The notes under the pieces: model-generated
Seen by the model: only the letters and a program-made list of their open reading frames with translations
Told to the model about the DNA's origin: nothing
Databases searched by the model: none
Source: Escherichia phage A4
Sequence record: ON286972
DNA: 64,000 bases
Direction: 5' to 3' (one strand)
Part shown: positions 30,736-60,896 of the stretch, piece by piece
Numbering within the stretch: the stretch's first letter is position 1
How the letters are laid out: the number at the start of each line of letters is the position of its first letter
Translations under genes and position numbers: made by a program

Positions 30736-31077
30736 ATGAAAACTAATATTCAACTCAAGGTATACATATCGTATGAAAATATATACATCAAAAGTAGTCT
30801 ATGTAAAGATGTAATGGACTACAAAGGTAAGCCATTCACAGTTACTTACAGTTCTACAGGAGGTTTATATATATCTTTTGCTAATTACGAAAATAATATG
30901 TACGAACACATTGACATTGAAGATTTAAGTACTTTATCAGAAGAGGAATACTTTCAGGAATCATTAGTCTGGGATTTAGAGTTTCCTATGCCATTAGTAC
31001 ATAAAATGATAGTACTAATAAAAGAAACTAAACAGGAGCCTCGTGATAATTATGAAGAACACATTATTGAGTATTAA
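30736..31077 (+). CDS. hypothetical acidic protein, paralog family C
   Basis: motif EEEYFQESLVWD. Confidence 0.65.
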   Translation: MKTNIQLKVYISYENIYIKSSLCKDVMDYKGKPFTVTYSSTGGLYISFANYENNMYEHIDIEDLSTLSEEEYFQESLVWDLEFPMPLVHKMIVLIKETKQEPRDNYEEHIIEY

Positions 31078-31089
31078 GAGTACTGAACC

Positions 31090-31320
31090 ATGAAAAGATT
31101 ATCATTCGAAGAGTACTGCAAGCTTATTAATACTTTACAACCACAAATACAACAAATAAATTCTCTTCCTATACCCCAAGAAGAACGTGCAGTACTGAAA
31201 GATGAGTTAATTTTAAAATGCACAGTAGGTACTAACTATCAAGCTGATAGTGTTCGTTATCTAATTTGGGGTTTAATGTGCATAATAGAGAACAAAGCAG
31301 TTGACAGTACTCTAATGTAG
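31090..31320 (+). CDS. hypothetical small protein, family B
   Basis: motif TVGTNYQADS. Confidence 0.65.
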   Translation: MKRLSFEEYCKLINTLQPQIQQINSLPIPQEERAVLKDELILKCTVGTNYQADSVRYLIWGLMCIIENKAVDSTLM

Positions 31321-31359
31321 TGCTATAGTACTTCTACGTTCTAATATAGGGTACAGATT

Positions 31360-31605
31360 ATGTTAAAATTTTTAAATTTCCTTATCGTCTTGTGTATTGT
31401 TCTTGGGATTGCACCGTTTGTATTAGCGTATCTGGATTCAGATGAAATGCACAAGATGAATTGCACAAAGACAGGACAGAGTAGAAAAGAGACGGTTATG
31501 ATGCCCGTAACGGTTATTGTGAATAATATGCCGATTACGAACATGATTCCTACCCTAACGACAACGTATCAGTACTCTTGCGATGACGGAGAGAGGTGGA
31601 GATGA
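31360..31605 (+). CDS. small predicted membrane protein
   Basis: N-term LKFLNFLIVLCIVLGIAPFVLAYL hydrophobic helix; 81 aa. Confidence 0.55.
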   Translation: MLKFLNFLIVLCIVLGIAPFVLAYLDSDEMHKMNCTKTGQSRKETVMMPVTVIVNNMPITNMIPTLTTTYQYSCDDGERWR

Positions 31606-31931
31606 CACGTAAATTCAATTGTATTGTCAGAGATAAAATCTGTTTCATTGCGTTGTCCAATTTCCAGAGCAATTCTGGGGTTAAGGTATTTGAGTACAAT
31701 AAAGTTGATAATTGTTTCTATTGGGTAGACGGTGTAAAATCCACAGGAAACAAGATTGCAGTACCGAATCTAGTTGATATCTCTGAAGAAGAAGAGTTTC
31801 AGTACAGTTTAGTACATGATGATTCTTTTGGATTTACGTTCAATGAAATGAAGGAAGTACAAAGGCAGATGATATCGTATAGTAATCTTCCAAAGCATTT
31901 CATACAAGATGTGCATAGAATTGTAATATAG
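31596..31931 (+). CDS. hypothetical acidic protein, family C
   Basis: motif EEEEFQYSLVHD. Confidence 0.65.
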   Translation: MEMTRKFNCIVRDKICFIALSNFQSNSGVKVFEYNKVDNCFYWVDGVKSTGNKIAVPNLVDISEEEEFQYSLVHDDSFGFTFNEMKEVQRQMISYSNLPKHFIQDVHRIVI

Positions 31932-31938
31932 GGGATAT

Positions 31939-32274
31939 ATGAAATTCAACATTCACCGAATTAATTCCGGTTGTATATTTGCTTATACGCATGAGAATTA
32001 CAAGAAGTACATGAATCATGAAGTACATTATGTTTTCGAGGACGGTAAAGAATATTTTGCTTATTTGAGTCCCAGGAGTTTAGGTAAGTACGAGTTGCTT
32101 CAGGATCTTTCTCTTATGCAGGAAGATGAATTATTTCAGTACAGTCTAATTCATGACCCTTATATGTTTGATATAGATATTATGTGCAGTTTACAGAAGA
32201 GGATGAAAGAAGTTTGGGATTCGATTAAAAGAGGTGATTGTATAGAATATGATAGTATACAAGAAGATGCCTAA
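31939..32274 (+). CDS. hypothetical acidic protein, family C
   Basis: motif EDELFQYSLIHD. Confidence 0.65.
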   Translation: MKFNIHRINSGCIFAYTHENYKKYMNHEVHYVFEDGKEYFAYLSPRSLGKYELLQDLSLMQEDELFQYSLIHDPYMFDIDIMCSLQKRMKEVWDSIKRGDCIEYDSIQEDA

Positions 32275-33255: not shown

Positions 33256-33266
33256 GGAAACAAAAT

Positions 33267-33623: not shown

Positions 33624-34139
33624 ATGAATGAAATTGAATTATTAACGCACAAGATTAGTACAATAATGCTTATGCTCAAAAATAATCATCCTATACATAA
33701 GTACATTGATATAGATGAATTACGCATAGAAGATAGGCATGGTAAATTATCGTTTATGTTTCACAATGCAAATAATGCAGGGAATGTTAACGTTTGTATT
33801 GCAGCATTTACCCAAGCCAATCCAGTACAAACATCTCCTGTTGTATACGAAAATAAAGAAGGGTATTTGTGGGTAAACACAAACGATTATTTCTTTTATG
33901 ATTTGAAACAAGATGATGAAGTAGAAGAACGAATTGATTTAATTGATATTAGTACAGATTGTAGTGCTGAATTATTTCAGAAATCGTTATTATATAGTCC
34001 TCGTCAAATGCATTATCTAAAGTTATTCAGTTCATTGTACGCGAATCCTTTAATTAAGGGTTTTAAATTTTATATAAAAGTTCCTGACATTCAAGCAGTT
34101 TATGATATTTTGATGCAAGGATATAGTTATGAAGTATAA
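33624..34139 (+). CDS. hypothetical acidic protein, family C
   Basis: motif AELFQKSLLY. Confidence 0.65.
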   Translation: MNEIELLTHKISTIMLMLKNNHPIHKYIDIDELRIEDRHGKLSFMFHNANNAGNVNVCIAAFTQANPVQTSPVVYENKEGYLWVNTNDYFFYDLKQDDEVEERIDLIDISTDCSAELFQKSLLYSPRQMHYLKLFSSLYANPLIKGFKFYIKVPDIQAVYDILMQGYSYEV

Positions 34140-34437
34140 AATGCTTTATACAAAAGATATGATTTATGTTGAATTAGAAGGCGATGAAGACGGTTGGAAT
34201 TTGATTTATTCAAGTAGTTCAGGTTGGTACATGGCACATTTAAATGATAACGAAGTTACAGATTATTTTGTAGATTTCAATACATTATCAGACGAAGAAT
34301 TGTTTCAACAGCAATTAGTGATTGACACGGGTGGTTATGATGTGTTATTATTAAAAAAGATACAGAAAGCTGTTATGAATTTTAATGCCCAAGTATCCGA
34401 ATGGGAAAGGAAATATTATGACCTCGAAGTACAATAA
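34129..34437 (+). CDS. hypothetical acidic protein, family C
   Basis: motif DEELFQQQLVID. Confidence 0.6.
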   Translation: MKYKMLYTKDMIYVELEGDEDGWNLIYSSSSGWYMAHLNDNEVTDYFVDFNTLSDEELFQQQLVIDTGGYDVLLLKKIQKAVMNFNAQVSEWERKYYDLEVQ

Positions 34438-34786
34438 TACATTTGATATTAATAAGTTAACAGAATGGTTTTATAATATTGAAATTGAAGCTATTCCGTA
34501 TCACAAGTACGAACAACGTGATTTGCGTAGTATAGATATTCGTGAGTTGTACGAGTATTATCAGAGTGCATTAGAGATGCATAAGATATTTTTGAGTACA
34601 GAATACATGACACGTTGTAATGATGCGTTTGATGAATTCAAGAAGAATGATAATTTAGTACAGAAATATGTAATAGCAAAGTACATGTACCTTCAGGGAA
34701 TTACAAGTATAGTGGAATTCAATACAGTTCTTGCTTTAGTTGAGATTATTTTATTATGCAAAAATGTAAAGTGGAATTTAGTTTAG
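34418..34786 (+). CDS. hypothetical protein
   Basis: ATG 34418 after AAAGGAAA SD; no family motif. Confidence 0.55.
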   Translation: MTSKYNNTFDINKLTEWFYNIEIEAIPYHKYEQRDLRSIDIRELYEYYQSALEMHKIFLSTEYMTRCNDAFDEFKKNDNLVQKYVIAKYMYLQGITSIVEFNTVLALVEIILLCKNVKWNLV

Positions 34787-35253
34787 AGAGTGCTGTACAG
34801 TACGTTAAGTACATTGAAGGTGTATACAATATAATGAAAGCATATGAAGGAAAAGGATATGCTTCAATAAATCACAAATATGATTACATCAACAATCAGT
34901 TAGAAGAATCAAATTCAGGTAAAGTGCTTTTTAGTTTTTTATATTTTGCTCCTGACAATGTATATCCTGATGAAGATGATCTTCGTCTGGATAGAGATGA
35001 CCTGTGGTATATGTATCCAGGACGTGATAAGCCAATGGATGATGCTTTGTTGGAAATCAAATACAGTACAGAACCATTGACACCGGAGTTGTGGTTCCAG
35101 TACAGTACAATACATGAAGAAATTGATATCTTTTTCTACGCAATATACAAGATGCTTTATGAGAATGGTGTGCTTAAGAATCATGTATATTTTTATTTCC
35201 AGCAAATGAAAAATGTATATGAGTCCTTTTACCCAACCGAGCCTGTATCGTAA
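34756..35253 (+). CDS. hypothetical acidic protein, family C
   Basis: motif PELWFQYSTIHEE. Confidence 0.6.
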   Translation: MQKCKVEFSLESAVQYVKYIEGVYNIMKAYEGKGYASINHKYDYINNQLEESNSGKVLFSFLYFAPDNVYPDEDDLRLDRDDLWYMYPGRDKPMDDALLEIKYSTEPLTPELWFQYSTIHEEIDIFFYAIYKMLYENGVLKNHVYFYFQQMKNVYESFYPTEPVS

Positions 35254-35278
35254 GATATGGGCTTTTTTCGTTTTGGTA

Positions 35279-35307
35279 TTGACATAGAAGACCAAAGCTG
35301 TTATCAT
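35279..35307 (+). promoter_or_regulatory. sigma70-like internal promoter in family C array
   Basis: TTGACA 35279-35284, 17 bp, TATCAT 35302-35307; AAAGGAGA SD then ATG 35334. Confidence 0.55.
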
Positions 35308-35333: not shown

Positions 35334-35858
35334 ATGGCGAGTTTCATGATCCCAAGTACATACGAAGATGCATCAAGTGCAGTGTATAAGGTTCATTATA
35401 TTTTTAATTTAATTATTAGTGCATCAAAAAATAAAATGTATGCACCTCTTGTGAAATATGATAAAAATGAGGAAATTTTTGTTAGCACAGAACAAACGAT
35501 TTTTCCATATTTCAAAGAAGATAGATTGTGGTTCATGCATTCAGTCGTATTACAAAGATATAATATAACAAGGTCCAATGAGCATGATTATTTGGATATA
35601 CAATTAGATCAACCCGATATTGGAGAGGATGAATATTTTCAGTACAGCACAGTACACCACCATGAAGATATCTTTGCTGCTATGCTTATTGCTAAATTGA
35701 ACACCGTTGATTTGGAGCAGCACAAATACAATAATAAATCATGTAAGATCATAATCCCTGCATTCATTGCTCTTTATGATTACATTGTGCATAACAAAAA
35801 AGATGATACCTATGCTTTCAATGAAGAGTATTTGGATTTTTTTAAGGAGAACATATGA
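35334..35858 (+). CDS. hypothetical acidic protein, family C
   Basis: motif EDEYFQYSTVHHHED. Confidence 0.7.
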   Translation: MASFMIPSTYEDASSAVYKVHYIFNLIISASKNKMYAPLVKYDKNEEIFVSTEQTIFPYFKEDRLWFMHSVVLQRYNITRSNEHDYLDIQLDQPDIGEDEYFQYSTVHHHEDIFAAMLIAKLNTVDLEQHKYNNKSCKIIIPAFIALYDYIVHNKKDDTYAFNEEYLDFFKENI

Positions 35859-36379
35859 GCAGTTCAACAATACAGAAAGCAATGACATTCAATGAAATTG
35901 GTGCATTTAAAGATAAGATTATTGATTGTATTGAATACGCGATTTGTAGTAATATCAAAAGTATAGAGGTATTTAACAAGTCAAATCGCTCTTACCATAT
36001 GATGTACATTGCAAACAATAATGGTATCATTCCATTTGTTTCGGATAGTACAATATGGTTCGCTTGCGATGTGAAAAAATACACAATAGGTTCATATGTC
36101 TTCGGTAAACATGGTGATCTAATTATTCCTGAGCATTGTATGCAAGAAGAAGAATATTTTCAAAAGCAATGTGTACATGAACCATTAGAGATGGTTGCTT
36201 TATATATGATACCTTATATCTCTAAATGTGTTCATGAGAATAAAGCTCCGTGGAATCATGAATTTGTATCGTTGAAGTTATTGTATAATGTTTTAGTACA
36301 ATATTATGATTACAGGCACAATGGTACAATCAGTGATGTATGGGATTTCGAAAATTTAAGGGTAAGTACATATGCATAA
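35855..36379 (+). CDS. hypothetical acidic protein, family C
   Basis: ATGA overlap; motif EEEYFQKQCVHE. Confidence 0.65.
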   Translation: MSSSTIQKAMTFNEIGAFKDKIIDCIEYAICSNIKSIEVFNKSNRSYHMMYIANNNGIIPFVSDSTIWFACDVKKYTIGSYVFGKHGDLIIPEHCMQEEEYFQKQCVHEPLEMVALYMIPYISKCVHENKAPWNHEFVSLKLLYNVLVQYYDYRHNGTISDVWDFENLRVSTYA

Positions 36380-37010
36380 TTTTCCCAGAAATGCTTCACC
36401 GTATGAGGTGATGAAGTTCATGGAGCCTCATGTTCCTTATATGTTTGAAATGCTAAAGAAGTTCAATGCTATTTTCCCTGAGAATTCAAAATTGGAGATT
36501 CCATTTGATTCCGCATCCAGATACAGTGCATCCTGTGGTAAATTAGTTTTAGTTATCGGTAGTGACAGAATTGGTTTCAGGGAAGTATTTGACACGTCAT
36601 TAGCATTTGGTATATTCGATAACAACAATAACATCACATACATTGACAAGTACATTTGCGACATAGCAGGTTCCTCTAAGCCTGATTCCTTTGTGGATTC
36701 AGTTGCAGATTATGGTGTTTCAAAAGATGGTAATGTAATAAGTACAAAGACGTTCATATCATTATCGTTAGAAGATGACATATGTTACATTGCAGGTCAA
36801 GAGTACGAGGGTGTAGAGGAAGTGCTTTTTCAAATGTCCTTAGTACAGAAGGATATGGTGGACCCTACCGAAATCCTGAAGTTGTGCAAATATGCGAATG
36901 AGTACAAGAAATTGATTGAACCTGGGTTTAGTTTCAGTGCACAGAGTCCACATTTTCAGATAAAAGTATATGAAGATTTCATTTTGAAGTTAAAAGAGAT
37001 TGTGTTATAA
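36372..37010 (+). CDS. hypothetical acidic protein, family C
   Basis: motif EEVLFQMSLVQKD. Confidence 0.65.
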   Translation: MHNFPRNASPYEVMKFMEPHVPYMFEMLKKFNAIFPENSKLEIPFDSASRYSASCGKLVLVIGSDRIGFREVFDTSLAFGIFDNNNNITYIDKYICDIAGSSKPDSFVDSVADYGVSKDGNVISTKTFISLSLEDDICYIAGQEYEGVEEVLFQMSLVQKDMVDPTEILKLCKYANEYKKLIEPGFSFSAQSPHFQIKVYEDFILKLKEIVL

Positions 37011-37062
37011 TACGCTATAACATGCAATAACACACAATACAACAAAGACGGGAGTGATTGAT

Positions 37063-37599
37063 ATGATCCAGCACAAACATTTTGAGTACGAGTTCGCTGA
37101 CAATTTAGTAAAAATCGTACAGGCGTTTGAGGCTGGGGATTTTGACCACATCTATCCTAAGCACAAGGAAGGATGGCTTGAGCCTAAGAGCGATATTGAA
37201 CAGTATCCCTCTATTGTGTATTACAGGAGAGATACGGTAATGCACGCTGTAGGTGAGAAGATGCAGTTAGAGTATTGTCTTTTGTTCAATGCTATTACAT
37301 CGGCTACATCAGCATCTGAAGAGTTCGCTCCAGTGAATTGGATTCGTTATTTGGATATGAGCAAGAGAGAGGAAGAAACCTTTTTTGGTTTAACAAAGCA
37401 CGTTGATATTGCAACCTTAAATCCTAACATCCTGAGTCCTGAAGAATATTTTCAGGAGTCCTTAGTACAAGATCCTTATGTTTTACAGGTGCAGCAAGTA
37501 TATAATGTATTACGTGCTAATGTGAAAACGAATTTCTTTTTAGCTTTAACGTGGTACGATAGGTTAGTAAAAGATCTCAAAGAGATTAAGGGGGAGTAA
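37063..37599 (+). CDS. hypothetical acidic protein, family C
   Basis: ATG 37063 after GGGAG SD (GTG 37054 alternative); motif PEEYFQESLVQD. Confidence 0.6.
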   Translation: MIQHKHFEYEFADNLVKIVQAFEAGDFDHIYPKHKEGWLEPKSDIEQYPSIVYYRRDTVMHAVGEKMQLEYCLLFNAITSATSASEEFAPVNWIRYLDMSKREEETFFGLTKHVDIATLNPNILSPEEYFQESLVQDPYVLQVQQVYNVLRANVKTNFFLALTWYDRLVKDLKEIKGE

Positions 37600-38165
37600 T
37601 GCTGGACCTTCAGGACATAGAAAGTACATGCAAAGTGATAGAAGATGATTTAGAATACATCAAGGGGTTGTATTTAATTGTAGATAGGATTTACAAAAAT
37701 CCGAATGCGTTTCAGGAAACGTACCAGCATGATAAATTTCGTCACGATGCAATCATTACGCTTATGTCGGATTTATCGATTTACGAAAGAAAATCCAACA
37801 AATCACATAGTGTATTATTTGTGAGTACAGATAGATTTTACAGTACAACATCAATTTGTTCAGATGTATCATGTGCATGGTTCAGTTCAAATGAATATAT
37901 AACAGTTAAAAATAATGGCGAAAATGAGAAATTAAAAGTAAGTGAGCTTATTGATTTGATGCCATATAGTCCTGATGTAGTGTTTCAGTACAGTACATTG
38001 CACGATTATAATTCAATACGATATCGTTATTTTGTTAAGCATTATTATGATACCTTCGGGGAGTTAACGGAGAAGTTAACGTTGAGATTTGACAGAGATA
38101 TCGATCTCGTTGCATTGAATCAGTACCTTCAGGAAGTGTTTGATATAAACGCGGAAAAGGGGTAA
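37599..38165 (+). CDS. hypothetical acidic protein, family C
   Basis: motif PDVVFQYSTLHD. Confidence 0.65.
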   Translation: MLDLQDIESTCKVIEDDLEYIKGLYLIVDRIYKNPNAFQETYQHDKFRHDAIITLMSDLSIYERKSNKSHSVLFVSTDRFYSTTSICSDVSCAWFSSNEYITVKNNGENEKLKVSELIDLMPYSPDVVFQYSTLHDYNSIRYRYFVKHYYDTFGELTEKLTLRFDRDIDLVALNQYLQEVFDINAEKG

Positions 38166-38379
38166 TTTTAAAATGATAAATATAGGCTTGTTTTTGGGGG
38201 CGTTTTGGGGGGTCAAAAAAATTTTCGCTGAAAAACATGTTAAGGTATATGTTTAATATAAAATTTTATATTGTGTTTTTCAGAGTACAGTTCATGTTTC
38301 CTTAAACAAAAAATACCCCCCGCCGCCGAACGTGCTCCTTATATTGGAGTTTACCTTATTAATTATAGTAGAGGTTATT

Positions 38380-38736
38380 ATGAGCAATGATTTTGCTATT
38401 CACAGTTTTTTCTACAAAAAGGTTGAGTTCTATTGTAATCTCGTTAAGGGTGATACCAATCATTCGTTGGACCAATATATTAAGTACACCTCAAATGGAT
38501 TTTCTTTTGTTGATTACGGTCGAGTTGGTGGTGGTGTTAATGAACCTATGCTGGACTATACAGAAATGGATGAGGCTACTCTATTTCAGGAATCATTAGT
38601 GTTCGATAAGAAATATATTTGTACACTAGATGAAGTTATTGGTATTCAGAATATCATGAAAGAATACTCTGCGAAGTGCATGATGGAATTAACTCAAGAT
38701 AAGCACAAGACTGTTCAGTGCTATTTCAATCTTTAG
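38380..38736 (+). CDS. hypothetical acidic protein, family C
   Basis: ATG 38380 after AGAGG; motif EATLFQESLVFD. Confidence 0.6.
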   Translation: MSNDFAIHSFFYKKVEFYCNLVKGDTNHSLDQYIKYTSNGFSFVDYGRVGGGVNEPMLDYTEMDEATLFQESLVFDKKYICTLDEVIGIQNIMKEYSAKCMMELTQDKHKTVQCYFNL

Positions 38737-38747: not shown

Positions 38748-39092
38748 ATGACATACAATGAATACCGTGAAATAGATCTTCTCCAGAATACATTATATGA
38801 AATTGAAGATTTAATGCACGGATGGACAAGTCTTTCTTTCTTTAATGAAATGTTCGAAGAAATAAAAGTAGTACTACAGAAAAAACATAATGGTACTAAA
38901 ATTAAAATAAAGACTTTCACTGGAGAAGTCTGGTGCGGAGAAATTGTGAAATACATTATAACTCGCAATAACGCATCATTCTGTTTGAATACTGGTCATT
39001 ACAGAAATCATTTCAACAATAGCAGTACTCAAGTTATTTCCGAGGAAGAATACAATGAGCACTGTAATAAACTTCTTAAGAGTAGATTCTAA
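38748..39092 (+). CDS. hypothetical protein, divergent family C-like
   Basis: Acidic EEEY stretch present but the FQ dyad is missing. Confidence 0.5.
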   Translation: MTYNEYREIDLLQNTLYEIEDLMHGWTSLSFFNEMFEEIKVVLQKKHNGTKIKIKTFTGEVWCGEIVKYIITRNNASFCLNTGHYRNHFNNSSTQVISEEEYNEHCNKLLKSRF

Positions 39093-52542: not shown

Positions 52543-52549
52543 TTTTAAA

Positions 52550-52587: not shown

Positions 52588-52615
52588 TTTAATATTATTT
52601 AACCGAGGATATCAT

Positions 52616-53170
52616 ATGGACAATTACCTATTAATCTTACAAATTTACAACGAACTGGGAAAACTTCTTGAAACGTGTAATTCACCGGGACGTAAATTAA
52701 GAATCGGTTTCGATTATGAAATTGAATACACAGGAGAGGGTATTGCAACGCAGCAGATGTTCACAGAAGAAAATAAAACTATTCTGTGCATTTACCCACA
52801 TGAAGGTGATGAGGAAGACTGTGTTGTTGATTTTTCATATGACAGTTCTTGGGCTTTTATTTCACGTAATCCTCGAATGAAAGAGGCAGTGGATTACAAA
52901 GAACCATCATATGATCCTATTGCGTTGTTCAGTACTGAGAATTTAGAAGAACAAAATTTCCAGAGTTCTGTAACTCACGATAAATTAATCACTGATGCAC
53001 TTACGATTGAAGCTTTAGCACGTAACTATAAATTTGATTTCAATCTCAATAATTATTATATGTCATATAGTGCAACAGCATCATTACTCACTGATGATCA
53101 ATTAGTAGTATTACTCAAGGACTTGAAAAACTACGCACAAACGAGAAAAGAACATGAAAACACTAATTGA
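52616..53170 (+). CDS. hypothetical acidic protein, family C
   Basis: ATG 52616 after GAGGAT; motif EEQNFQSSVTHDKL. Confidence 0.65.
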   Translation: MDNYLLILQIYNELGKLLETCNSPGRKLRIGFDYEIEYTGEGIATQQMFTEENKTILCIYPHEGDEEDCVVDFSYDSSWAFISRNPRMKEAVDYKEPSYDPIALFSTENLEEQNFQSSVTHDKLITDALTIEALARNYKFDFNLNNYYMSYSATASLLTDDQLVVLLKDLKNYAQTRKEHENTN

Positions 53171-53726
53171 TATTTTTAAAGTACTAGAAGAACTTACTCA
53201 TAAGTTAGATGAACAAAAAAGAACTGAGAATATTTTTCATTACTTCAACAATCCAATGTACCGATTAGTTTTTGATTGCAGTACTTTGTATCGTTATGCT
53301 AATATCCAAATACAACACTGCATTCAACATAAAACCAAAAATATATGGTCAGTTGATGCTTCTTATGTGGCATCAGGCAGAGAGAGTAAATTTCTGGGTT
53401 CAGTTTCTGATTGTAGTCTTACGGTTAATAAACTTAAAGAAACTAACGAATTAATCGTCAGAAATTTGTACGATGATTATTATGATGATGAAGAATATCT
53501 TCATATTGCACCTGAGCTACAAAATCCAGAAGAGCGAGAAGCATATCTTTTCCAGTTGTCGTTGCTTCCTGGTTATGATATGATAGCTAAAGCTGATTTT
53601 GTATATCAACTATCAATGCAACTTGGTAGTGGGGAGTGTTCTGCTTTCAATAATCTATACAATGAAAGTACTGAAACACAAGAAGAATTATTGGAGGAAT
53701 TAAATGCATTTCTCAAATCTTTATAA
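53154..53726 (+). CDS. hypothetical protein, family C
   Basis: motif EAYLFQLSLLPGYD. Confidence 0.6.
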   Translation: MKTLIDIFKVLEELTHKLDEQKRTENIFHYFNNPMYRLVFDCSTLYRYANIQIQHCIQHKTKNIWSVDASYVASGRESKFLGSVSDCSLTVNKLKETNELIVRNLYDDYYDDEEYLHIAPELQNPEEREAYLFQLSLLPGYDMIAKADFVYQLSMQLGSGECSAFNNLYNESTETQEELLEELNAFLKSL

Positions 53727-54282
53727 TTACATGTCCGAAGAGTATCAATATTACACTAAGATGGTTTTGAAAGTGAATGCTATTCTTAATAGTGATTTAT
53801 GTAAAACTAAAAAGACATTTAATCTCCCATATATGCGTTTGGCGATTACTAAAGACCAGGAAGGTATGTATGATCATGCAGTAGTTTTGATGAATGATCT
53901 ACGTGTCTTTCTGATAATTAAGTACAATAAAGAAGATTTAACCAATAACGATGGGTACATTAACTACGATTATATTATTGGAGGAAATGCTGAAGTTCCA
54001 GGGACAAGTGAATTTGCAGGGATTGTTATTTCAGGTAAAAAAATTCCAAAGATTAATCTTAACAGTAGTACTATAGAAGAAGAACTATTCCAGTTAAGTA
54101 CTATGTACAGTACTAACGAATTGGATTTATTACTTTTCAGTACAATCGTCAATCATGAACTGGATAAGAAAGACAAATACTGTCCATTACAACAAATTGT
54201 TCATCGTTTTAAACGTAGTGAATTTAAAAGAATTCATGAAGGTCTGGACAGTCTTATCAACAATACTGGGGAGTTCTCATGA
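53704..54282 (+). CDS. hypothetical protein, family C
   Basis: motif EEELFQLSTMYSTNE. Confidence 0.6.
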   Translation: MHFSNLYNYMSEEYQYYTKMVLKVNAILNSDLCKTKKTFNLPYMRLAITKDQEGMYDHAVVLMNDLRVFLIIKYNKEDLTNNDGYINYDYIIGGNAEVPGTSEFAGIVISGKKIPKINLNSSTIEEELFQLSTMYSTNELDLLLFSTIVNHELDKKDKYCPLQQIVHRFKRSEFKRIHEGLDSLINNTGEFS

Positions 54283-54839
54283 AATATAGTCTTTACAGTA
54301 GAGGAAAGTTTCTTGAGAAGTTCATTGAAGATTGTGTAGCTGCACTGAGTTTAATTCGTGAAGGTGAATACATTAAAGTCAATCACACTGTACTAAGAGA
54401 TCTTAATTTTTTTCTGAGTGGTGATTTGAATAATGATATGCACTTCACAATAACGTACAACCACAAAGATATCATTGAAATCAATACACAACAACGACAC
54501 ATAAAAGAATACACCCGATTACGCAATACCAAGACAAAGCGTGTAGTAATCAAAAAAGGTGATGTAGAGTTGATGTGTAAAGATAGTACTGCAATAGATA
54601 TCAGTACTTACTTCGATAATGAAGAAGATATGGATTGTGATTGCTTCCAGAAGAGTTTAATTATTGATGATCCGTATGTACTGTACGGTGCAGTACTGGC
54701 TCCGTTCTGTCAGAAGAACTTACCAGATGGATGTACGGTTGAATTGAACTTGACAGAACTCATGAATGATGATATATTTGAGTACATGAGTACTAACTCC
54801 AAGGCAATGATTGAACATATTAAGGCAATCCAATGTTAA
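54279..54839 (+). CDS. hypothetical protein, family C
   Basis: ATGA overlap; motif DCDCFQKSLIIDDP. Confidence 0.65.
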   Translation: MKYSLYSRGKFLEKFIEDCVAALSLIREGEYIKVNHTVLRDLNFFLSGDLNNDMHFTITYNHKDIIEINTQQRHIKEYTRLRNTKTKRVVIKKGDVELMCKDSTAIDISTYFDNEEDMDCDCFQKSLIIDDPYVLYGAVLAPFCQKNLPDGCTVELNLTELMNDDIFEYMSTNSKAMIEHIKAIQC

Positions 54840-55318
54840 ATCCAGCAGACGTTATTAAATTTTGTAAAATTCTTGAGAAGTATTCTCATAAATTTGTGCA
54901 CGAAGTACAGATAATGATTGATGGCATTCCCTTTAACTTCGTGAAAAACAACGACATTATATCTGTGTTCTGTGGCTCATGGACATTTTGTGAACTCAAC
55001 TGTCAAGAATCTCAAAATGTTATTGTGAAACGAAACATGATCCTATCAAGGGAAAGTTCAGTATTCATTGAACCAAGTGGTGAAATCATATACGAGAAAA
55101 AGAACGGCGACAGAACTTTAGATGATTTTATGGCTGAATTGAGCCTTGATAATGAGTTTCATAGAAATGCAGTTCTGATACATAGTGCTATGGTGCATGA
55201 AACTAATTTAAATTCTATATCAATTAATTTCGGTGTTTATTCTTATTACAAATTTACATTTGATATGATATTTCAAACACTTAACAAACATCCTATATTC
55301 TGGAAATGCAATGAATAA
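54833..55318 (+). CDS. hypothetical protein
   Basis: 161-aa ORF; family motif not recognisable. Confidence 0.55.
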   Translation: MLNPADVIKFCKILEKYSHKFVHEVQIMIDGIPFNFVKNNDIISVFCGSWTFCELNCQESQNVIVKRNMILSRESSVFIEPSGEIIYEKKNGDRTLDDFMAELSLDNEFHRNAVLIHSAMVHETNLNSISINFGVYSYYKFTFDMIFQTLNKHPIFWKCNE

Positions 55319-55769
55319 AGACGATTACGAATTACTGAAAAAGTTAATCCAGTACTGCCTCAATGAACTGGATAATGGTAAAGCTCGAAAATCAGGTTCA
55401 TGGTTTGATGTAAGCTATCCATCAGACGGCGATGATATGATGACATTATGGTCAAATGAAAGATACATTGATTATAGTGTAATGGATAATACTACTATAG
55501 ATTATGTCAATGACAATGTATGGTATTTCAATACACAGTTAATCATTGATATTAAAAGTATAGATTTAAGTACTGAGATTGATGAAGCAACCATATTTCA
55601 ATTAAGTACTTTGTATTCTGATGAAGTGATATATCCGTTATTACTTCTCCTACAGTTGAGAGCCATTGCAGCGGAACGTGGTTTCACATCCATATCATTT
55701 GCTCATGACATTGATGTACGAAGAGCAGAAATTACAAAATTAGTTGAGGGATATGATGGAACACTTTAG
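55311..55769 (+). CDS. hypothetical acidic protein, family C
   Basis: motif DEATIFQLSTLYSDE. Confidence 0.65.
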   Translation: MNKDDYELLKKLIQYCLNELDNGKARKSGSWFDVSYPSDGDDMMTLWSNERYIDYSVMDNTTIDYVNDNVWYFNTQLIIDIKSIDLSTEIDEATIFQLSTLYSDEVIYPLLLLLQLRAIAAERGFTSISFAHDIDVRRAEITKLVEGYDGTL

Positions 55770-56247
55770 TACTAAAGACTTTGTGGAATTGCATAAAATT
55801 CTTGAAGAAAAATATATCAATGAACAATATGGTCGATTCGAACTGGCTCCAGATATTATTCTTAAAATACAAAAAGATGGTATGATCAGAGTTGTATTTG
55901 AGCAGAAAAGAGGTTTAGACCATGACATTTTCATGCTCTTTGATAGCAATAGTCCTATCTATGATGCACCAAGTTTCGATACAAGCACCATTGGTTCACA
56001 ATCCGCAGTCTTTCATCCAGGAACTACTGTTGTAAAAATCGATGGTGTAGATTGCAACATGCGACCTGTATCATTGGGTGAAATTGATGAAGTTGAATTT
56101 CAGAACAGTACTGTGAATAATTATAGTGCAATGTTCACCTACATGTGCTATCTTAACAGTACTTGTTGCAAATTTCTTATGTACACATCGTATGTAAATG
56201 AAGATGAAGTACTACACTATGTATTGAAAAAACTAAGAGAATTATGA
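55756..56247 (+). CDS. hypothetical protein, family C
   Basis: ATG 55756 after GAGGG; motif DEVEFQNSTVNNYS. Confidence 0.6.
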   Translation: MEHFSTKDFVELHKILEEKYINEQYGRFELAPDIILKIQKDGMIRVVFEQKRGLDHDIFMLFDSNSPIYDAPSFDTSTIGSQSAVFHPGTTVVKIDGVDCNMRPVSLGEIDEVEFQNSTVNNYSAMFTYMCYLNSTCCKFLMYTSYVNEDEVLHYVLKKLREL

Positions 56248-56248: not shown

Positions 56249-56851
56249 ATGATCATTGACATGCCTATTCTTAATAAAATGCTTAACCCTGTCATTACGT
56301 TAGCTAAAAGTATTTCTAATAATGAAAAGTTGCATCTCCCATACTCTATGTTAACGTATGCAACTGATTTTTACAGGATTGAAATCTCGGCATGTGAACA
56401 ACGAATTACACTAGCATTCAAACGCCTTGGTGCTGGACTTGCAAATGATTTTGATATTTCACTGATACTTCATGGTGAATTAGAAGATAGTAAAATTCTG
56501 TCCTATGAAAGAATTCTTCGCAGTACAAATGAAATAAAATTATTCAAAACATTTTCACATTATAATGGTTCTGATGTTTCATATTATTTTGATAAGGATT
56601 CATTTAAGAATATCAAAAGTGTTGAAGTGAAAGATTTCAGCGAAGAATGGTATTTTCAAAATACATTAATTCATTCTTTACCTTCATATGAAGAAATGAA
56701 GATGAACATTGATCTTTATGAAAAATTAAAATCAGAACTGAAATGTAATTTTCTATTATCAATGAACTACAAAAAGATCAGTACTGATGTGGTATTAGAA
56801 GATGAACTAATGAAACGAATTTGGTCTGCTATACCAGTTATTAAGGAATAA
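56249..56851 (+). CDS. hypothetical protein, family C
   Basis: motif SEEWYFQNTLIHSLP. Confidence 0.65.
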   Translation: MIIDMPILNKMLNPVITLAKSISNNEKLHLPYSMLTYATDFYRIEISACEQRITLAFKRLGAGLANDFDISLILHGELEDSKILSYERILRSTNEIKLFKTFSHYNGSDVSYYFDKDSFKNIKSVEVKDFSEEWYFQNTLIHSLPSYEEMKMNIDLYEKLKSELKCNFLLSMNYKKISTDVVLEDELMKRIWSAIPVIKE

Positions 56852-56853: not shown

Positions 56854-57393
56854 ATGCACATTGCAACATTATCAAATACTAAAGAATTTGAGCTATGGCC
56901 TGAGAAAGTTAACAGCTTACGTCAGCGTTATGTTAATTTCTGCCGTGGCATCAGGAAAGCCAGTAGAATGTCACATTCACTAAGCATGTCAATTGATGGT
57001 TGTGTTATGAATGCAGATAAGAACCGTTTGTACGTTGAATCATACAGTTCGCAAGCTCTGTACATTATGCTTCATGCTGGTACACAAATCCCACAGAATT
57101 CGATTGGTTGTTATTCAATTACATGGTCTGGACGAAAGTCTACTAAATTATATCCGTGCAAAAGAAACGACCAATCGTTCAGTGTTGATATTAATTACTG
57201 TGAGTACACTGAAGAAGAACACTTTCAGCACAGTACTCTTCATGATATCATTGAGTACAATGAATGCATCAATGTACTGGATAAATGTTATGATTTAGAA
57301 CATAATACTGGTATCGTTGTAGTTAATAATTGCTTTTTTGATAGTGATGTACTTGATACATTAGATTATTTTTTAGAGGGTTACAATGACTAA
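56854..57393 (+). CDS. hypothetical protein, family C
   Basis: motif TEEEHFQHSTLHDII. Confidence 0.65.
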   Translation: MHIATLSNTKEFELWPEKVNSLRQRYVNFCRGIRKASRMSHSLSMSIDGCVMNADKNRLYVESYSSQALYIMLHAGTQIPQNSIGCYSITWSGRKSTKLYPCKRNDQSFSVDINYCEYTEEEHFQHSTLHDIIEYNECINVLDKCYDLEHNTGIVVVNNCFFDSDVLDTLDYFLEGYND

Positions 57394-58003
57394 CATTAGA
57401 ACAGAGTATGTTAAGTACGAGAAAGCACTACGTGATTTACTAAACATTGCACCGGATTTAATTAGAGCTAAACAAACACTATTTGACAAGTACGGTCCGA
57501 AAAGTGAACTCAAGCTATCAAAAAAGGGAAAACCCACACAATATACAACGCTGTATAATAGATATAGCGTTGGGATTTGTAATATCTATACAGATGAATT
57601 AGTACTGGAATTAACCCAAGACGATGATGAAGAAGCACATGATTTATTTCCTGAATTTGAAGAGTGCATGTTTAGTCCAGGTAATCCAGTGTTTTTAACC
57701 TTAAATGATGGAAGAAAAACGCTAAAAGAATCGTTCATCACATATGATGCCAAAACTAAAACACTAATGGATATTGAATCTGGGTATAAGACTGATCTGA
57801 AATCACTTGAAGATTGTAAGGGTGCATTGTTTCAGATGGGTGTAATCACAGAGGTTACCACTACACCAGAAGAATTATGGCTTATGGTTTCAGTACTGAA
57901 TGATTGGTACAAAGTGAAGAGTCTACGAAATATGTTCATTTATATCAAGCCTGATTGCATCAAGAAAGAAACACTAATTAACAATATGGTAATACCTGAA
58001 TGA
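57386..58003 (+). CDS. hypothetical protein, family C
   Basis: motif KGALFQMGVITEV. Confidence 0.6.
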   Translation: MTNIRTEYVKYEKALRDLLNIAPDLIRAKQTLFDKYGPKSELKLSKKGKPTQYTTLYNRYSVGICNIYTDELVLELTQDDDEEAHDLFPEFEECMFSPGNPVFLTLNDGRKTLKESFITYDAKTKTLMDIESGYKTDLKSLEDCKGALFQMGVITEVTTTPEELWLMVSVLNDWYKVKSLRNMFIYIKPDCIKKETLINNMVIPE

Positions 58004-58599
58004 AAAAAGATCCCAATGAAGACTTAATCAATTCTTTAAGTACTATCAAAGATTTGTGGTTACGATATCGTGGATTGTATAGTGTTAAAGATACAGAAAA
58101 TAACATACTCCAAAGTCTTAAAATCACGATTCGAATGCAATTCAAAAATGGAATGGCAGTTGATGTTGAGATGAACAAAACTGGAGTTTATGTATATGAT
58201 GGTTCTCGAACTGCAATCTTTATGGCAGAATTCATAGATGAAGACTGTAATCTATATTGTTCATACGACATTGAAAGTGGTGATATCGAAATGTTCGCTA
58301 ATGAACCTATCCTGCTCCGTTTCACTAAATCATGGAATGAAGATTACATTATATATCAAAATGGAGGCTTCTTAAATTCCGATGAGGAACCCATCGATAA
58401 CATAGAAGAAATGGCATTCCAGAGCAGTACTGTTAACGATGATGCATTATCTTATCAAGAAATCCTTGACACAGTGAATGGTTATGATAAAATACAGGCT
58501 GCAATGAAAGAGAACGGTATCTGTTATCTTACAGTACTGGACAAACTCTTCTACGATGAACTGTGTTCGTACCTGAACTGTATTCTCACTGAGGATTGA
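58000..58599 (+). CDS. hypothetical acidic protein, family C
   Basis: ATGA overlap; motif IEEMAFQSSTVNDD. Confidence 0.65.
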   Translation: MKKDPNEDLINSLSTIKDLWLRYRGLYSVKDTENNILQSLKITIRMQFKNGMAVDVEMNKTGVYVYDGSRTAIFMAEFIDEDCNLYCSYDIESGDIEMFANEPILLRFTKSWNEDYIIYQNGGFLNSDEEPIDNIEEMAFQSSTVNDDALSYQEILDTVNGYDKIQAAMKENGICYLTVLDKLFYDELCSYLNCILTED

Positions 58600-59015
58600 T
58601 GATGATTCTATACCATGCAAGTACTGTTAAAATTGACAACTTCTACATTCCTTATGGTGGTTTACATATGGGAGGGAAGCATAGTGCTCTTGAGGCTGCG
58701 TTACGCAAGCTGAGAAGCCCACTGAACGTTGTTGATGCTGACATGGTGTACTTGCATACCTTAGAAGTTGACGTTGATAACGTGCTTCTGTGTGAGGATA
58801 TGGGTAGTGATGACGAATGGCGTTCACTTATTGAGTATTGTGATACTGAAGGTTACGATGCAGTTCAGTACAAGAATGAATACGAGCCGGACAATGTTCC
58901 TAGTTATATGATTTGGGATACATCTAAAGTTCGTATTGTTGAAGTTGATACTATGCATATGGATGAAGCTGAAATGATTATCGAAGATTTTCTTGATGAA
59001 TATGAAGGTGTATAA
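58596..59015 (+). CDS. hypothetical acidic protein, not family C
   Basis: 139 aa; ILYHASTVKIDNFYIPYGGLHMGG N-term; no FQxS motif. Confidence 0.6.
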   Translation: MMMILYHASTVKIDNFYIPYGGLHMGGKHSALEAALRKLRSPLNVVDADMVYLHTLEVDVDNVLLCEDMGSDDEWRSLIEYCDTEGYDAVQYKNEYEPDNVPSYMIWDTSKVRIVEVDTMHMDEAEMIIEDFLDEYEGV

Positions 59016-59539
59016 TGACTGATCCAATGACAGTACTGGTACGTACTAAGTTACTATTGAAGATTGGTGAGATTTTCACAGATCTTATGCACAATCAAAT
59101 TGATATTACAGAACTAGATATTAAGCAACCGTGGGAAATTACAAGGTTCTCGGCGTTCCACCGATTGTCATATAAAGGTGAAACTGTTCTTGATTTTAAT
59201 CACAAAGCACAATTCCTGGATTATGCCGCGTTGTACCGAAATAATTATTCAGGTTGTATAACCAATAACTTCAAAGAAATAAAAGTACAGATTGAATCAA
59301 TTGAATTTAACGAATTACTATATCCAGAATTTAAGTTAACTGAAGAATCTATGTTTCAGTACTCACTAATTCTAAAAGATCTAGAAACTCTAGAGTACTA
59401 CAGAGAGTTAGTAGATATTTTTATGAATGTTCGTCTTTCAAAAGATATTGTGATATTCTGGTATACAGAGCGTATTACAGAGGAAGTACTTGAAGAATTT
59501 CTCGTAAATATGACAGCTATTAAGGAGAATTTATGTTAG
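59015..59539 (+). CDS. hypothetical protein, family C
   Basis: motif TEESMFQYSLILKD. Confidence 0.65.
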   Translation: MTDPMTVLVRTKLLLKIGEIFTDLMHNQIDITELDIKQPWEITRFSAFHRLSYKGETVLDFNHKAQFLDYAALYRNNYSGCITNNFKEIKVQIESIEFNELLYPEFKLTEESMFQYSLILKDLETLEYYRELVDIFMNVRLSKDIVIFWYTERITEEVLEEFLVNMTAIKENLC

Positions 59540-59997
59540 ACATTTTAGGAAACATTGATACGGTAAACTTTTTTATTCAAGACGCTATTATCAATATCAC
59601 ATCAAAGCCAATCCAAGTTAGAAGTAACTTTTATAGTGGTGATGGTTATATGGTTGATATTGTTGAAGTTAAGAAAAATGTTTTCCAAATCAATATTCTC
59701 ACCCAAACGAGAACACAGATTTCTCGTATCATCATTAATAAAGATGAAGCCGTCATTCGTTATAATTCAAAATTTATGATGTTCTTTAAAAAGAAAACTG
59801 GTATGTTCAGTACTAATCTCTTTGATGAATCATTTTATTCAACCGATGTGGAATCTACCTTCTTCACACAAAGTACATTTATCAAATTTGATAGTATTGA
59901 GTTCGATTCAAATATCATGTCAGAAACATTACAATGCCTAAAGGTATTACATAATGAATTTACCAACTTTATCGATAGCCGAAACAAGATTAACTAA
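59533..59997 (+). CDS. hypothetical protein, divergent family C
   Basis: AAGGAGA SD; motif ESTFFTQSTFIKFD. Confidence 0.6.
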   Translation: MLDILGNIDTVNFFIQDAIINITSKPIQVRSNFYSGDGYMVDIVEVKKNVFQINILTQTRTQISRIIINKDEAVIRYNSKFMMFFKKKTGMFSTNLFDESFYSTDVESTFFTQSTFIKFDSIEFDSNIMSETLQCLKVLHNEFTNFIDSRNKIN

Positions 59998-60412
59998 TAT
60001 AAATGAATTAGTTAATGCTATCTTATCATGCAAATTAAAAATTGATACCAAATGTAAGTACAATGGTATTAATTTATACAAATTAAAATATTCACGAATA
60101 CATAATTCAGTAAAATACATTTACGGTACTAGTCAAATCATCTTTGAAACGGTTACAGTGAACAGTAAATTACTTATTGATGTTTATATCAGTAATAAGA
60201 TTAAAAATTCACAAAAAGTGTTGACAGTTTCTTCTGATAATGTTACTATGTTTGATACCAACAATAAGAAGTTAGATATTGATTTAGATGTTATTCTTGA
60301 TGGTGACTTATTCCAGTACGAGTGTATTGGTCTAAATAATCCATTTGATAAATCAGTACTAGTCAATTTAATCAAACATATTAAGGGTATTTTAGATGAA
60401 ACTAACAACTGA
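59954..60412 (+). CDS. hypothetical protein, family C
   Basis: motif GDLFQYECIGLNNP; 44-nt overlap with upstream gene. Confidence 0.55.
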   Translation: MNLPTLSIAETRLTNINELVNAILSCKLKIDTKCKYNGINLYKLKYSRIHNSVKYIYGTSQIIFETVTVNSKLLIDVYISNKIKNSQKVLTVSSDNVTMFDTNNKKLDIDLDVILDGDLFQYECIGLNNPFDKSVLVNLIKHIKGILDETNN

Positions 60413-60896
60413 TATGAAACTTTGCATTTCTTTGATTATGCGTTCATTCGATGACAAAAGGACAAGTAAAGTTACTATCACCAATGACCATTTACAATGC
60501 AGTACACTCAATAGTACTGTAGTTTTCGGATTACATAGCCTCCGTTTGACGATAGTAAATAATATTGACAATACGGCGATGTGTATTACCCCCTGCCACG
60601 TTCAGGATGAACATGGTGTTTATCTTCACCACATGGGGACTTCGTATTTCATTTTCAATGAAGAAAAGGGAGTACAAAAAGACTTTAACACGTTGTGCGT
60701 AGACGGCGGTGAATTGTTCCAGATGGGAACTTTATATCAGTGTGATTTTACTGATACATCTGAAGTACTTCCATTATTTCTTGATCTCATTAAGAATTTA
60801 GGTTCATTTACTGGTCGCTATAACAAATCATTAAAGGCACAGGCAATTCAAAATATCTCGGAAGCAATAGAATATTACGAAAACGCTGTGTCGTAA
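60396..60896 (+). CDS. hypothetical protein, family C
   Basis: motif GELFQMGTLYQCDF. Confidence 0.6.
   Translation: MKLTTDMKLCISLIMRSFDDKRTSKVTITNDHLQCSTLNSTVVFGLHSLRLTIVNNIDNTAMCITPCHVQDEHGVYLHHMGTSYFIFNEEKGVQKDFNTLCVDGGELFQMGTLYQCDFTDTSEVLPLFLDLIKNLGSFTGRYNKSLKAQAIQNISEAIEYYENAVS

Follow-up and report, generated by a model that had tools for sequence, protein, structure and literature searches.

Organisation of the locus

In the genome of Escherichia phage A4 (sequence record ON286972), a stretch of 64,000 nucleotides (nt), hereafter the window, harbours a tandem array of 43 genes, which lie head-to-tail on the + strand within positions 30736-59539 and encode members of one protein family, referred to here as the FQ family. 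Judging from its nucleotide matches, the window is part of an Asteriusvirus genome, i.e., of a jumbo myovirus of the 121Q/PBECO4 type; over 5-15 kb, the two best matches are WPEC5 and 121Q, with 72-79% coverage and about 89-91% nucleotide identity. Nearly all open reading frames (ORFs) of the window are on the + strand. Within the array, non-family ORFs are interspersed among the FQ genes, all 43 FQ ORFs are intact, and the genes are tightly packed, nine junctions overlapping by 4 nt (ATGA type), seven by 1 nt, and most of the others showing an overlap or a gap of no more than 12 nt. The FQ members are the following, with ORF starts as listed by program and uncurated, and lengths in amino acids (aa):

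FQ member 1, 30736..31077, + strand, 113 aa, short form; motif LSEEEYFQESLVWD; 91% identical to the 121Q orthologue
FQ member 2, 31596..31931, + strand, 111 aa; motif ISEEEEFQYSLVHD
FQ member 3, 31939..32274, + strand, 111 aa; motif MQEDELFQYSLIHD
FQ member 4, 33624..34139, + strand, 171 aa; motif DCSAELFQKSLLYS
FQ member 5, 34129..34437, + strand, 102 aa; motif LSDEELFQQQLVID
FQ member 6, 34756..35253, + strand, 165 aa; motif LTPELWFQYSTIHE
FQ member 7, 35334..35858, + strand, 174 aa; motif IGEDEYFQYSTVHH
FQ member 8, 35855..36379, + strand, 174 aa; motif MQEEEYFQKQCVHE; phrog_33775
FQ member 9, 36372..37010, + strand, 212 aa; motif GVEEVLFQMSLVQK
FQ member 10, 37054..37599, + strand, 181 aa; motif LSPEEYFQESLVQD; phrog_28680
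FQ member 11, 37599..38165, + strand, 188 aa; motif YSPDVVFQYSTLHD
FQ member 12, 38332..38736, + strand, 134 aa as listed, GTG start probably too far upstream; motif MDEATLFQESLVFD
FQ member 13, 39092..39418, + strand, 108 aa; motif NYESFIFQESLVWD
FQ member 14 (A4_354, 100% identical), 39590..40072, + strand, 160 aa; motif DSEEYYFQQSTVYN; FYxD subfamily; phrog_9317; modelled protein
FQ member 15, 40074..40544, + strand, 156 aa; motif GSEEFYFQQNTIYE
FQ member 16, 40541..40984, + strand, 147 aa; motif GTEEYYFQQSLIFN
FQ member 17, 40984..41439, + strand, 151 aa; motif DSEEYYFQQSTVYT; 53% identical to member 14, the closest paralogue pair of the array
FQ member 18, 41445..41891, + strand, 148 aa; motif GNEEGYFQLSTVLN
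FQ member 19, 41964..42497, + strand, 177 aa; motif SFEEQMFQLSCTDD
FQ member 20, 43128..43676, + strand, 182 aa; motif INEESVFQLSTVHN
FQ member 21, 44175..44588, + strand, 137 aa as listed; motif LSEEEFFQESTVWD
FQ member 22, 44588..44926, + strand, 112 aa, short form; motif YSEEELFQESLVWE; second, low-confidence model
FQ member 23, 44929..45465, + strand, 178 aa; motif LTEELFFQMSTVDD; phrog_28549
FQ member 24, 45522..46019, + strand, 165 aa; motif NDECEYFQYCTIYS
FQ member 25, 46019..46522, + strand, 167 aa; motif ISEEDYFQLSTTMN; at most 31% identity to its counterpart in 31 matching phage records
FQ member 26, 46506..46844, + strand, 112 aa; motif LSEEELFQMSTTFE
FQ member 27, 46844..47275, + strand, 143 aa; motif MPPDELFQYSLVCP
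FQ member 28, 47263..47745, + strand, 160 aa; motif PTEETHFQLSLIYT
FQ member 29, 47742..48212, + strand, 156 aa; motif CNEEMYFQNSLLYT
FQ member 30, 48222..48728, + strand, 168 aa; motif LTDENYFQNSLIYN; basic, isoelectric point (pI) 9.3; phrog_34017
FQ member 31, 48703..49317, + strand, 204 aa; motif VLDETLFQYSLIHN; reciprocal best hit RaK2 266804
FQ member 32, 49322..49954, + strand, 210 aa; motif YSEESFFQYSLLYE; reciprocal best hit RaK2 267428, E 2.5e-17
FQ member 33, 49951..50502, + strand, 183 aa; motif VDDGVLFQYSTLYD
FQ member 34, 52559..53170, + strand, 203 aa as listed, TTG start uncertain; motif NLEEQNFQSSVTHD
FQ member 35, 53154..53726, + strand, 190 aa; motif EREAYLFQLSLLPG; joined in search round 3
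FQ member 36, 53704..54282, + strand, 192 aa; motif TIEEELFQLSTMYS
FQ member 37, 54279..54839, + strand, 186 aa; motif DMDCDCFQKSLIID; joined in search round 3
FQ member 38, 55311..55769, + strand, 152 aa; motif IDEATIFQLSTLYS
FQ member 39, 55744..56247, + strand, 167 aa; motif EIDEVEFQNSTVNN
FQ member 40, 56249..56851, + strand, 200 aa; motif FSEEWYFQNTLIHS; joined in search round 2; reciprocal best hit RaK2 271327
FQ member 41, 56854..57393, + strand, 179 aa; motif YTEEEHFQHSTLHD
FQ member 42, 58000..58599, + strand, 199 aa; motif NIEEMAFQSSTVND
FQ member 43, 59015..59539, + strand, 174 aa; motif LTEESMFQYSLILK; reciprocal best hit RaK2 274108

Delineation of the family and its motif

The family was delineated by an iterative profile hidden Markov model (HMM) search of the window ORFs, seeded with the 27 ORFs that match the pattern E..FQ.S, every one of them on the + strand and inside 30736-59539, and iterated until convergence on 43 ORFs of 102-212 aa. 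Round 1 gained 13 members, with E 3e-16 to 1e-3 against the seed-only model, and the late joiners, at 56249 (round 2) and at 53154 and 54279 (round 3), each carry the motif at the aligned position; final-round E-values are circular, the members being by then part of the model. Over the whole window, the three + frames contain the pattern 28 times and the - strand once, against a mean of 0.6 over all six frames of shuffled sequence. Together with mixed codon usage (see below), these counts rule out a low-complexity or chance artefact, a possibility considered in an earlier reading of the window made from the DNA letters alone (hereafter the sequence-only reading). That reading had described a tandem array of D/E-rich paralogues with a shared motif, chained by ATGA-type overlaps, all of which stands; it put the membership at about 47-50, HMM convergence giving 43.

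The motif reads [LIM][ST][ED][ED]x[YL]FQxS[LT][VIL][HYW][DNE]. In the family alignment, F and Q are present without exception in 43/43 window members and they are likewise invariant across 126 proteins from three genomes (A4, 121Q, and RaK2), in which S plus two acidic positions are nearly invariant and overall identity falls to about 25%; this invariance is partly circular, the HMM favouring FQ and outliers of the FM and LFQ-like kinds scoring below threshold. Among the 43 members, the F codon is TTT in 31 and TTC in 12, and the Q codon CAG in 29 and CAA in 14; such mixed synonymous codons indicate, as had been argued from the letters, that the constraint therefore acts on the protein. The residue following Q is Y, L, E, Q, K, or N, with Ser one position further, and the motif is placed 41-88 residues before the C-terminus. 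By size, 10 members are short (no more than 145 aa) and 33 long; a second motif, [FY][FY]xD, is found 21-30 residues past FQ in 10 members spanning 39.1-48.2 kb. As for charge, 42/43 members are acidic (pI 4.0-5.8, net charge -3 to -22), the sole basic one being encoded at 48222-48728 (pI 9.3), and D+E content, a measure of bulk acidity, amounts to 12-20%. None of the 43 members has a convincing membrane segment; one has a hydrophobic N-terminus, with a GTG start that is probably over-extended.

Outside the array, an ORF at 1914-2585, given as a motif-bearing member in the sequence-only reading, has FM in place of FQ and reaches only E 0.03 by hmmsearch; hhalign nonetheless aligns it with the columns of the motif (probability 71%, E 3.7e-5), so that it is probably a divergent FQ member. 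The ORFs beyond the 43 members are as follows:

Outlier outside the array, 1914..2585, + strand, 223 aa; carries LSEEELFMYSTVIN (LSEEELFMYSTV), with FM replacing FQ; 86% identical to 121Q gene 256
Possible degenerate member, 57386..58003, + strand, 205 aa; GALFQMGVITE; not significant
Possible degenerate member, 59954..60412, + strand, 152 aa; DGDLFQYECIG; weak (hmmsearch E 0.0045, hhalign probability 12%) and not significant
Possible degenerate member, 60396..60896, + strand, 166 aa; GGELFQMGTLYQ; not significant

Homology searches and predicted structure

In agreement with the sequence-only reading, in which the motif was not recognised as a named domain, no model of Pfam, NCBIfam, or PADLOC recurs among the 33 FQ members scanned, permissive E-values included, the best single domain matches (E 0.001-0.1) each being confined to one member. 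A sequence profile search of the PDB with the family returned noise only (best match, an acetylcholine receptor at E 0.04), and tblastn with the HMM consensus returned no matches. The PHROG groups matched by FQ members, namely phrog_9317, 12674, 34017, 28549, 28680, 22855, 33775, and 13866, are all of "unknown function," with E-values such as 4.5e-61 to phrog_9317 and 1.7e-104 to phrog_33775; phrog_12674 is cross-matched by 7/10 members tested. On these sequence matches, PHROGs divides one FQ superfamily over at least eight groups.

An AlphaFold2 model of member 14 (39590-40072) was built on the alignment of the 33 long paralogues and reached a predicted local distance difference test (pLDDT) of 79 and a predicted template modelling score (pTM) of 0.77, with pLDDT 96-98 over the motif region. 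Along the chain, an N-terminal helix (residues 3-21) and a linker of low confidence (30-57) precede the four strands of a beta-meander (63-95); three helices come next, at 97-101, 107-113 (with the EEYYFQQ motif), and 119-133, followed by a strand (139-142, FYFD) and C-terminal helices. The model of a short member (member 22) is weak (pLDDT 66, pTM 0.38), again with a beta-meander followed by helices and the motif helical; it was too poor for use in a fold search. As predicted by these models, the FQ scaffold is alpha/beta, i.e., a beta-meander followed by a helical hairpin of which [ST]-E-E-x-[YL]-F-Q forms the first helix, and in the long forms a helix at the N-terminus and a linker of low prediction quality are added to this scaffold. 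No fold match was found in the PDB; in BFVD, meaningful matches are restricted to uncharacterised proteins of 121Q, SP27, and RaK2, with GAP32, Serratia BF, and Yersinia fHe-Yen9-03 among the non-significant ones. As modelled, the fold is apparently new. Neither an Ocr, ArdA, or Arn fold nor a significant ArdA Pfam match was found for the family. A cleavage site of the TEV/3C type (E-x-x-Y-x-Q followed by G/S) was also set aside, the residue after Q not being small and the motif being helical in both models.

These results bear on two alternative views of the family. On the one hand, the array might be a poly-immunity array of antidotes blocking diverse toxins, e.g., abortive infection (Abi) nucleases and other effectors, bacteriocins, or the effectors of competing phages, in the manner of the tandem orphan-immunity loci found with polymorphic toxin systems. 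Immunity loci such as those of the SUKH and Imm types usually consist of tandem small, often acidic paralogues, and the FQ proteins are indeed acidic and accompanied by early-gene signals (see below); yet neither SUKH/SMI1_KNR4, nor Imm, nor colicin-immunity proteins have a Pfam or PDB fold match in the family, no linked toxin-like gene was recognised in the window, and the idea is largely a special case of the anti-defence role proposed below, which makes it quite improbable as an explanation of its own. On the other hand, the members might act as hub-and-spoke adaptors, the invariant FQ helix docking all of them on one host or phage machine (protease, RNA polymerase, or replisome) and the variable parts picking cargo or targets, as do eukaryotic F-box and poxviral PRANC-type proteins. 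The conservation of five motif positions in 126 proteins of about 25% identity exceeds the usual need of a hydrophobic core, the position of the motif relative to the C-terminus is fixed within 41-88 residues, and genes for a ClpP-like protease and a DnaJ-like protein lie downstream in 121Q. Against this, the HMM itself selects FQ, leaving the FM and LFQ-like outliers sub-threshold, and the motif is predicted as a well-packed helix of high confidence, fitting a structural core. Adaptors of this kind are thus considered unlikely.

Distribution across phages

Searched against 1.84 billion representative proteins, the FQ profile gave just 163 matches at E<=1e-3, all of 55-213 aa, and the clusters sampled among them are Asteriusvirus proteins or derive from metagenomic contigs of no more than about 350 kb. 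By HMM scan, phage 121Q has 41 FQ members, colinear with those of A4. In Klebsiella phage RaK2 (genus Alcyoneusvirus), 42 members were found at E<0.01 (43 matches at E<=1) over the 150 kb scanned, all with the same motif, e.g., LTEEEYFQYSTLYD; its copies form a main array at 262-276 kb, the others being dispersed over 162-258 kb. In 121Q as well as in RaK2, genes downstream of the array encode a DNA methyltransferase (Dam), RnlA, PseT, a Ser/Thr phosphatase, and a DNA ligase, to which 121Q adds the DnaJ-like gene and the ClpP-like protease. In T4, Dam methyltransferase and RnlA/PseT tRNA repair are counter-defence functions, a point in favour of the role proposed below.

The equivalent block of 121Q begins at a divergent junction, where it adjoins a - strand array of RCC1-like genes. 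These number about 10 paralogues annotated as "DNA condensation" at 119.8-131.3 kb of the 121Q record, to the left of the window-equivalent region and on the opposite strand; their homologues are virion-associated in phAPEC6, and they constitute a second large paralogue family beside the early region.

Antiquity and divergence of the array

The A4 paralogues are mutually very distant, with BLAST scores typically of 20-40 bits, the exception being a cluster at 39.6-41.4 kb that is 36-53% identical; for 25/43 members, a RaK2 protein outscores every A4 paralogue. Reciprocal best hits between A4 and 121Q are colinear (rho 0.99), and gene order is also partly kept with respect to RaK2 (rho 0.51, p 0.02 for A4; rho 0.75, p 4e-4 for 121Q). 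With about 40 copies in both 121Q and RaK2 and an order that is partly shared, the expansion is older than the genus split; by these sequence comparisons, it is ancient rather than recent, and most paralogues have been kept. The recent expansion implied by the sequence-only reading, and more generally any recent adaptive expansion, is rejected in view of the paralogue and RaK2 distances, the stable copy number (about equal in 121Q and RaK2), the conserved order, and the near-saturated synonymous sites.

Among Asteriusviruses, no other part of the region is as divergent as the array, megablast covering no more than 25% of 30.7-55.6 kb. Over much of it, positional orthologues of A4 and 121Q are 23-46% identical, against about 90% for neighbouring genes and 76-100% for most genes at 5-25 kb. 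Genes of 80-91% identity are nonetheless scattered among the divergent ones, neighbours switching between about 85-90% and about 25-40% in a gene-by-gene mosaic, which suggests frequent recombination among deeply diverged array haplotypes. The member at 46019 has at most 31% identity to its counterpart across all 31 matching phage records. For the very divergent orthologues, dS is saturated and pairwise dN/dS (omega) uninformative, hence synonymous codon identity was used instead. Conserved residues of divergent orthologues have the identical codon in 54% of cases, against a random expectation of 44% and 81% in flanking genes; synonymous sites are therefore nearly saturated too. This pattern is indicative of old allelic lineages that recombination has exchanged, or of a locally raised mutation rate, and not of recent amino-acid selection alone.

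In the eight FQ pairs with unsaturated dS, omega is 0.23-0.77 with a median of 0.46, higher than in 39 flanking genes (median 0.15; Mann-Whitney p about 1e-4). The question of diversifying selection, raised in the sequence-only reading, thus receives a divided answer, omega being above that of the flanking genes but above 1 in no gene. Likewise, the strong diversification reported for the N-terminal halves exists, diverged A4/121Q orthologues being 31% identical on the N-terminal side of the motif, but the C-terminal side has diverged alike (36%), against 60% within the motif itself; on these alignments, divergence is general outside the motif.

Two further explanations can be weighed at this point. 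In the first, the array would be dispensable filler, i.e., the decaying relic of old duplications, kept as a jumbo capsid filled by headful packaging needs DNA, with little function per gene. The raised omega, the extreme divergence with some degenerate-looking copies, and the unrelated methyl-accepting chemotaxis protein (MCP)-like gene inserted mid-array would be in line with it, but each of the 43 ORFs is intact, every measurable pair has an omega below 1, motif and copy number are conserved between genera, and the genes are tightly packed with translational coupling, which renders filler very improbable. In the second, the proteins would serve the phage itself, by regulating or chaperoning the timing of replication or transcription, the assembly of the many fibre and whisker proteins, or the persistent infection state that has been reported for Asteriusviruses. 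Some 40 paralogues stably kept in conserved order across genera with different hosts would fit phage-side partners, Asteriusviruses are over-represented among persistent infections, and Asterius-like phages possess other large paralogue sets, e.g., the RCC1-like fibre proteins. However, 23-46% identity between positional orthologues is hard to square with phage partners that are about 90% identical, and the early promoter context is unsuited to late assembly; a phage-internal role, too, has a low probability.

Transcription signals and expression context

Near-consensus sigma-70 promoters, defined as matching at no fewer than 11 of 12 positions, are present at 34 sites on the + strand of the window and at four on its - strand, against about 1.6 per strand in shuffles, and they are positioned upstream of gene starts. 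The array accounts for 10/34 of the + strand sites, five of them in its rare intergenic gaps, in keeping with the internal sigma70-like promoters noticed in the sequence-only reading. The promoters in the gaps and the terminator-like hairpins are the following:

31301..31329, + strand, sigma-70-like promoter, TTGACA-17-TATAGT, TG extended -10; intergenic gap
35239..35264, + strand, terminator-like hairpin, then T run; transcription unit end
35279..35307, + strand, sigma-70-like promoter, TTGACA-17-TATCAT, TG; directly behind the terminator-like hairpin
41902..41929, + strand, sigma-70-like promoter, TTGACA-16-TACAAT, TG; intergenic gap
45462..45490, + strand, sigma-70 promoter of perfect consensus, TTGACA-17-TATAAT, TG; intergenic gap
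50491..50512, + strand, terminator-like hairpin
50525..50553, + strand, sigma-70-like promoter, TTGACA-17-TAGAAT, TG; behind the terminator-like hairpin
52547..52572, + strand, terminator-like hairpin; 3' of the inserted MCP-like gene
61528..61548, + strand, terminator-like hairpin; just past the right end of the array

Promoters are fewer in the array than at 5-25 kb; their placement in gaps, in two cases behind hairpins, implies polycistronic units of tightly coupled genes, and we infer from the promoters that it would be an early gene block transcribed by the host RNA polymerase. In the distant relative PA5oct, the early class consists of blocks of small uncharacterised genes, and the phage relies on host RNA polymerase. 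In the virion proteome of phAPEC6 (mass spectrometry, 62 proteins), no gene between gp347 and gp549 is represented, and the FQ homologue gp442c falls in this interval; in the annotation of RaK2, too, no FQ member figures as a structural protein of the virion. On the phAPEC6 proteome, a virion or inner-body protein of the phiKZ type was rejected.

Comparison with known systems

Expansions of small paralogues are already known in jumbo phages, namely a zinc-ribbon family of about 35 copies in Bacillus phage G, reported as a lineage-specific expansion (Iyer et al. 2021, PMC7824862), and the remark that about 10% of RaK2 proteins are paralogues (Simoliunas et al. 2013, PMC3622015). The FQ family resembles them as a large set of small paralogues of unknown role in one jumbo-phage clade. 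It differs from them in fold and motif, which are unnamed, in its copy number of at least 40, and in being common to two genera with order partly kept, for which reason it is not lineage-specific. Neither PMC7824862 nor PMC3622015 contains a description of it, a literature search for the family, its motif, or its cross-genus conservation turned up only the general remark on RaK2 paralogues among the papers that could be searched, and the genes are deposited as hypothetical proteins; the sequence-only reading had ranked the array as the window's best candidate for an undescribed system. What sets the FQ family apart from the known expansions is how large and old it is, the conservation of its gene order, its apparently new fold, and the extreme divergence of its alleles.

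In T4-like phages, the early regions consist of small early ORFs behind sigma-70 promoters and vary between relatives. The A4 array is similar to these early or "hyperplastic" regions in its head-to-tail small genes, strong host-type promoters, high variability, and location upstream of pseT/rnlA-type genes, except that the T4 regions mix unrelated ORFans whereas in A4 one family fills most of a 30-kb block. A parallel may also be drawn with the multigene families of large DNA viruses of eukaryotes, among which the MGF360/505 proteins of African swine fever virus (ASFV) and the ankyrin-PRANC and Bcl-2-like sets of poxviruses are host-range and immune-evasion factors. Tandem diverged paralogues with a conserved C-proximal element and a variable rest are common to both, but there is no sequence or fold relation and the analogy is one of organisation only. 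Pursued further, this analogy would make of the FQ family an F-box/PRANC-type adaptor analogue on a previously unseen fold, with each variable surface recruiting a different host protein and the array as a programmable targeting library setting host range in RaK2-like jumbo phages, a rather unlikely proposition.

Proposed role

The FQ family is tentatively proposed, with a probability of roughly 0.4, to be a panel of early cytoplasmic binding proteins on one scaffold, probably devoted to host takeover or anti-defence. Polycistronic early transcripts would yield the FQ proteins in bulk soon after DNA entry, and the proteins would remain in the cytoplasm. They would most likely be non-enzymatic binders, because no invariant residues typical of a catalytic site are present. 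The FQ hairpin and the beta-sheet would provide the constant core, and the divergent acidic surfaces would give each paralogue a separate target, so that host proteins, possibly including nucleic-acid-binding enzymes, would be neutralised or redirected. That some 40 distinct paralogues were kept over such a long time suggests a lack of redundancy among them. Of the arms-race or takeover role put forward in the sequence-only reading, this keeps the part for which there is circumstantial evidence, i.e., early promoters, absence from the phAPEC6 virion, raised omega, and divergence, and drops the recent, ongoing expansion.

Several points weigh against a panel of takeover or anti-defence binders. 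Promoter consensus is the sole basis for the early assignment, and the exclusion from the virion comes from relatives and not from A4. No similarity to known anti-defence or takeover proteins was found in the searches described above. The invariant polar Gln hints at one shared ligand or partner rather than 43 different ones. No measurable FQ pair has a gene-wide omega above 1, and synonymous sites are nearly saturated in the very divergent orthologues too, so that their divergence may owe more to age and recombination than to selection. Lastly, arms-race families usually undergo gene birth and death, and an ancient, stable copy number with a conserved order is less characteristic of them.

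Other features in the window

Within the array, the MCP-like gene at 51130-52542 (+ strand) encodes a protein of 470 aa with N-terminal hydrophobic segments and a chemotaxis signalling domain (PF00015, E 4e-37). This mid-array insertion forms, with the ORF at 50585-51133, one unit bounded by promoter and terminator (50525-52572); it is missing from the syntenic region of 121Q, and its best tblastn matches (no more than 35% identity) are bacterial MCP genes or probable contaminant records, with no other Asteriusvirus among them. Also located in the array, a very acidic non-family protein (58596-59015, + strand, 139 aa, pI 4.2, no Pfam match) is 90% identical to its 121Q orthologue with an omega of 0.09, i.e., strongly constrained unlike its neighbours.

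Two more head-to-tail arrays of very small genes, at 103-4139 (about 59-81 aa) and 26365-30733 (65-96 aa), are 36-95% identical to 121Q and unmatched by the FQ HMM. At 5000-25300, many small genes have their own near-perfect sigma-70 promoter, and perfect TTGACA-N16/17-TATAAT is found at 12 sites, mostly within 15.8-23.6 kb; from its promoters, this segment resembles a block of early genes, each expressed strongly and individually. The approximately 2 kb at 4200-6100 are nearly ORF-free, matching an unannotated gap in 121Q, and include a tandem array of 8-bp period (5196-5357, CTAGA[CT]GG repeated about 20 times) as well as a dense 10-bp palindrome, TCAGTACTGA, often directly behind a -10-like TATGAT; with no tRNA or Rfam match, this segment could be a regulatory or origin-like region. 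Window-wide, the palindrome has 19 exact copies (e.g., at 60, 4366, 7741, 17525, 29841, 52929, and 63648) against 0.02 expected from shuffling, and is a candidate binding site or transcript-start element.

Significance

One FQ family makes up about 7% of the genes, and about 21 kb of coding sequence, of a phage of about 355 kb, with no relative detected among solved structures. An ancient, ordered array whose alleles have deeply diverged between otherwise about 90% identical genomes is unusual for a phage gene family. Some 40 copies are kept in at least two genera infecting E. coli and Klebsiella, and several of those phages are therapy candidates. Viewed as a single family, dozens of "hypothetical proteins" per genome become one tractable question and, if they form an anti-defence or targeting library, they would offer a wealth of new inhibitors and also help to determine host range.

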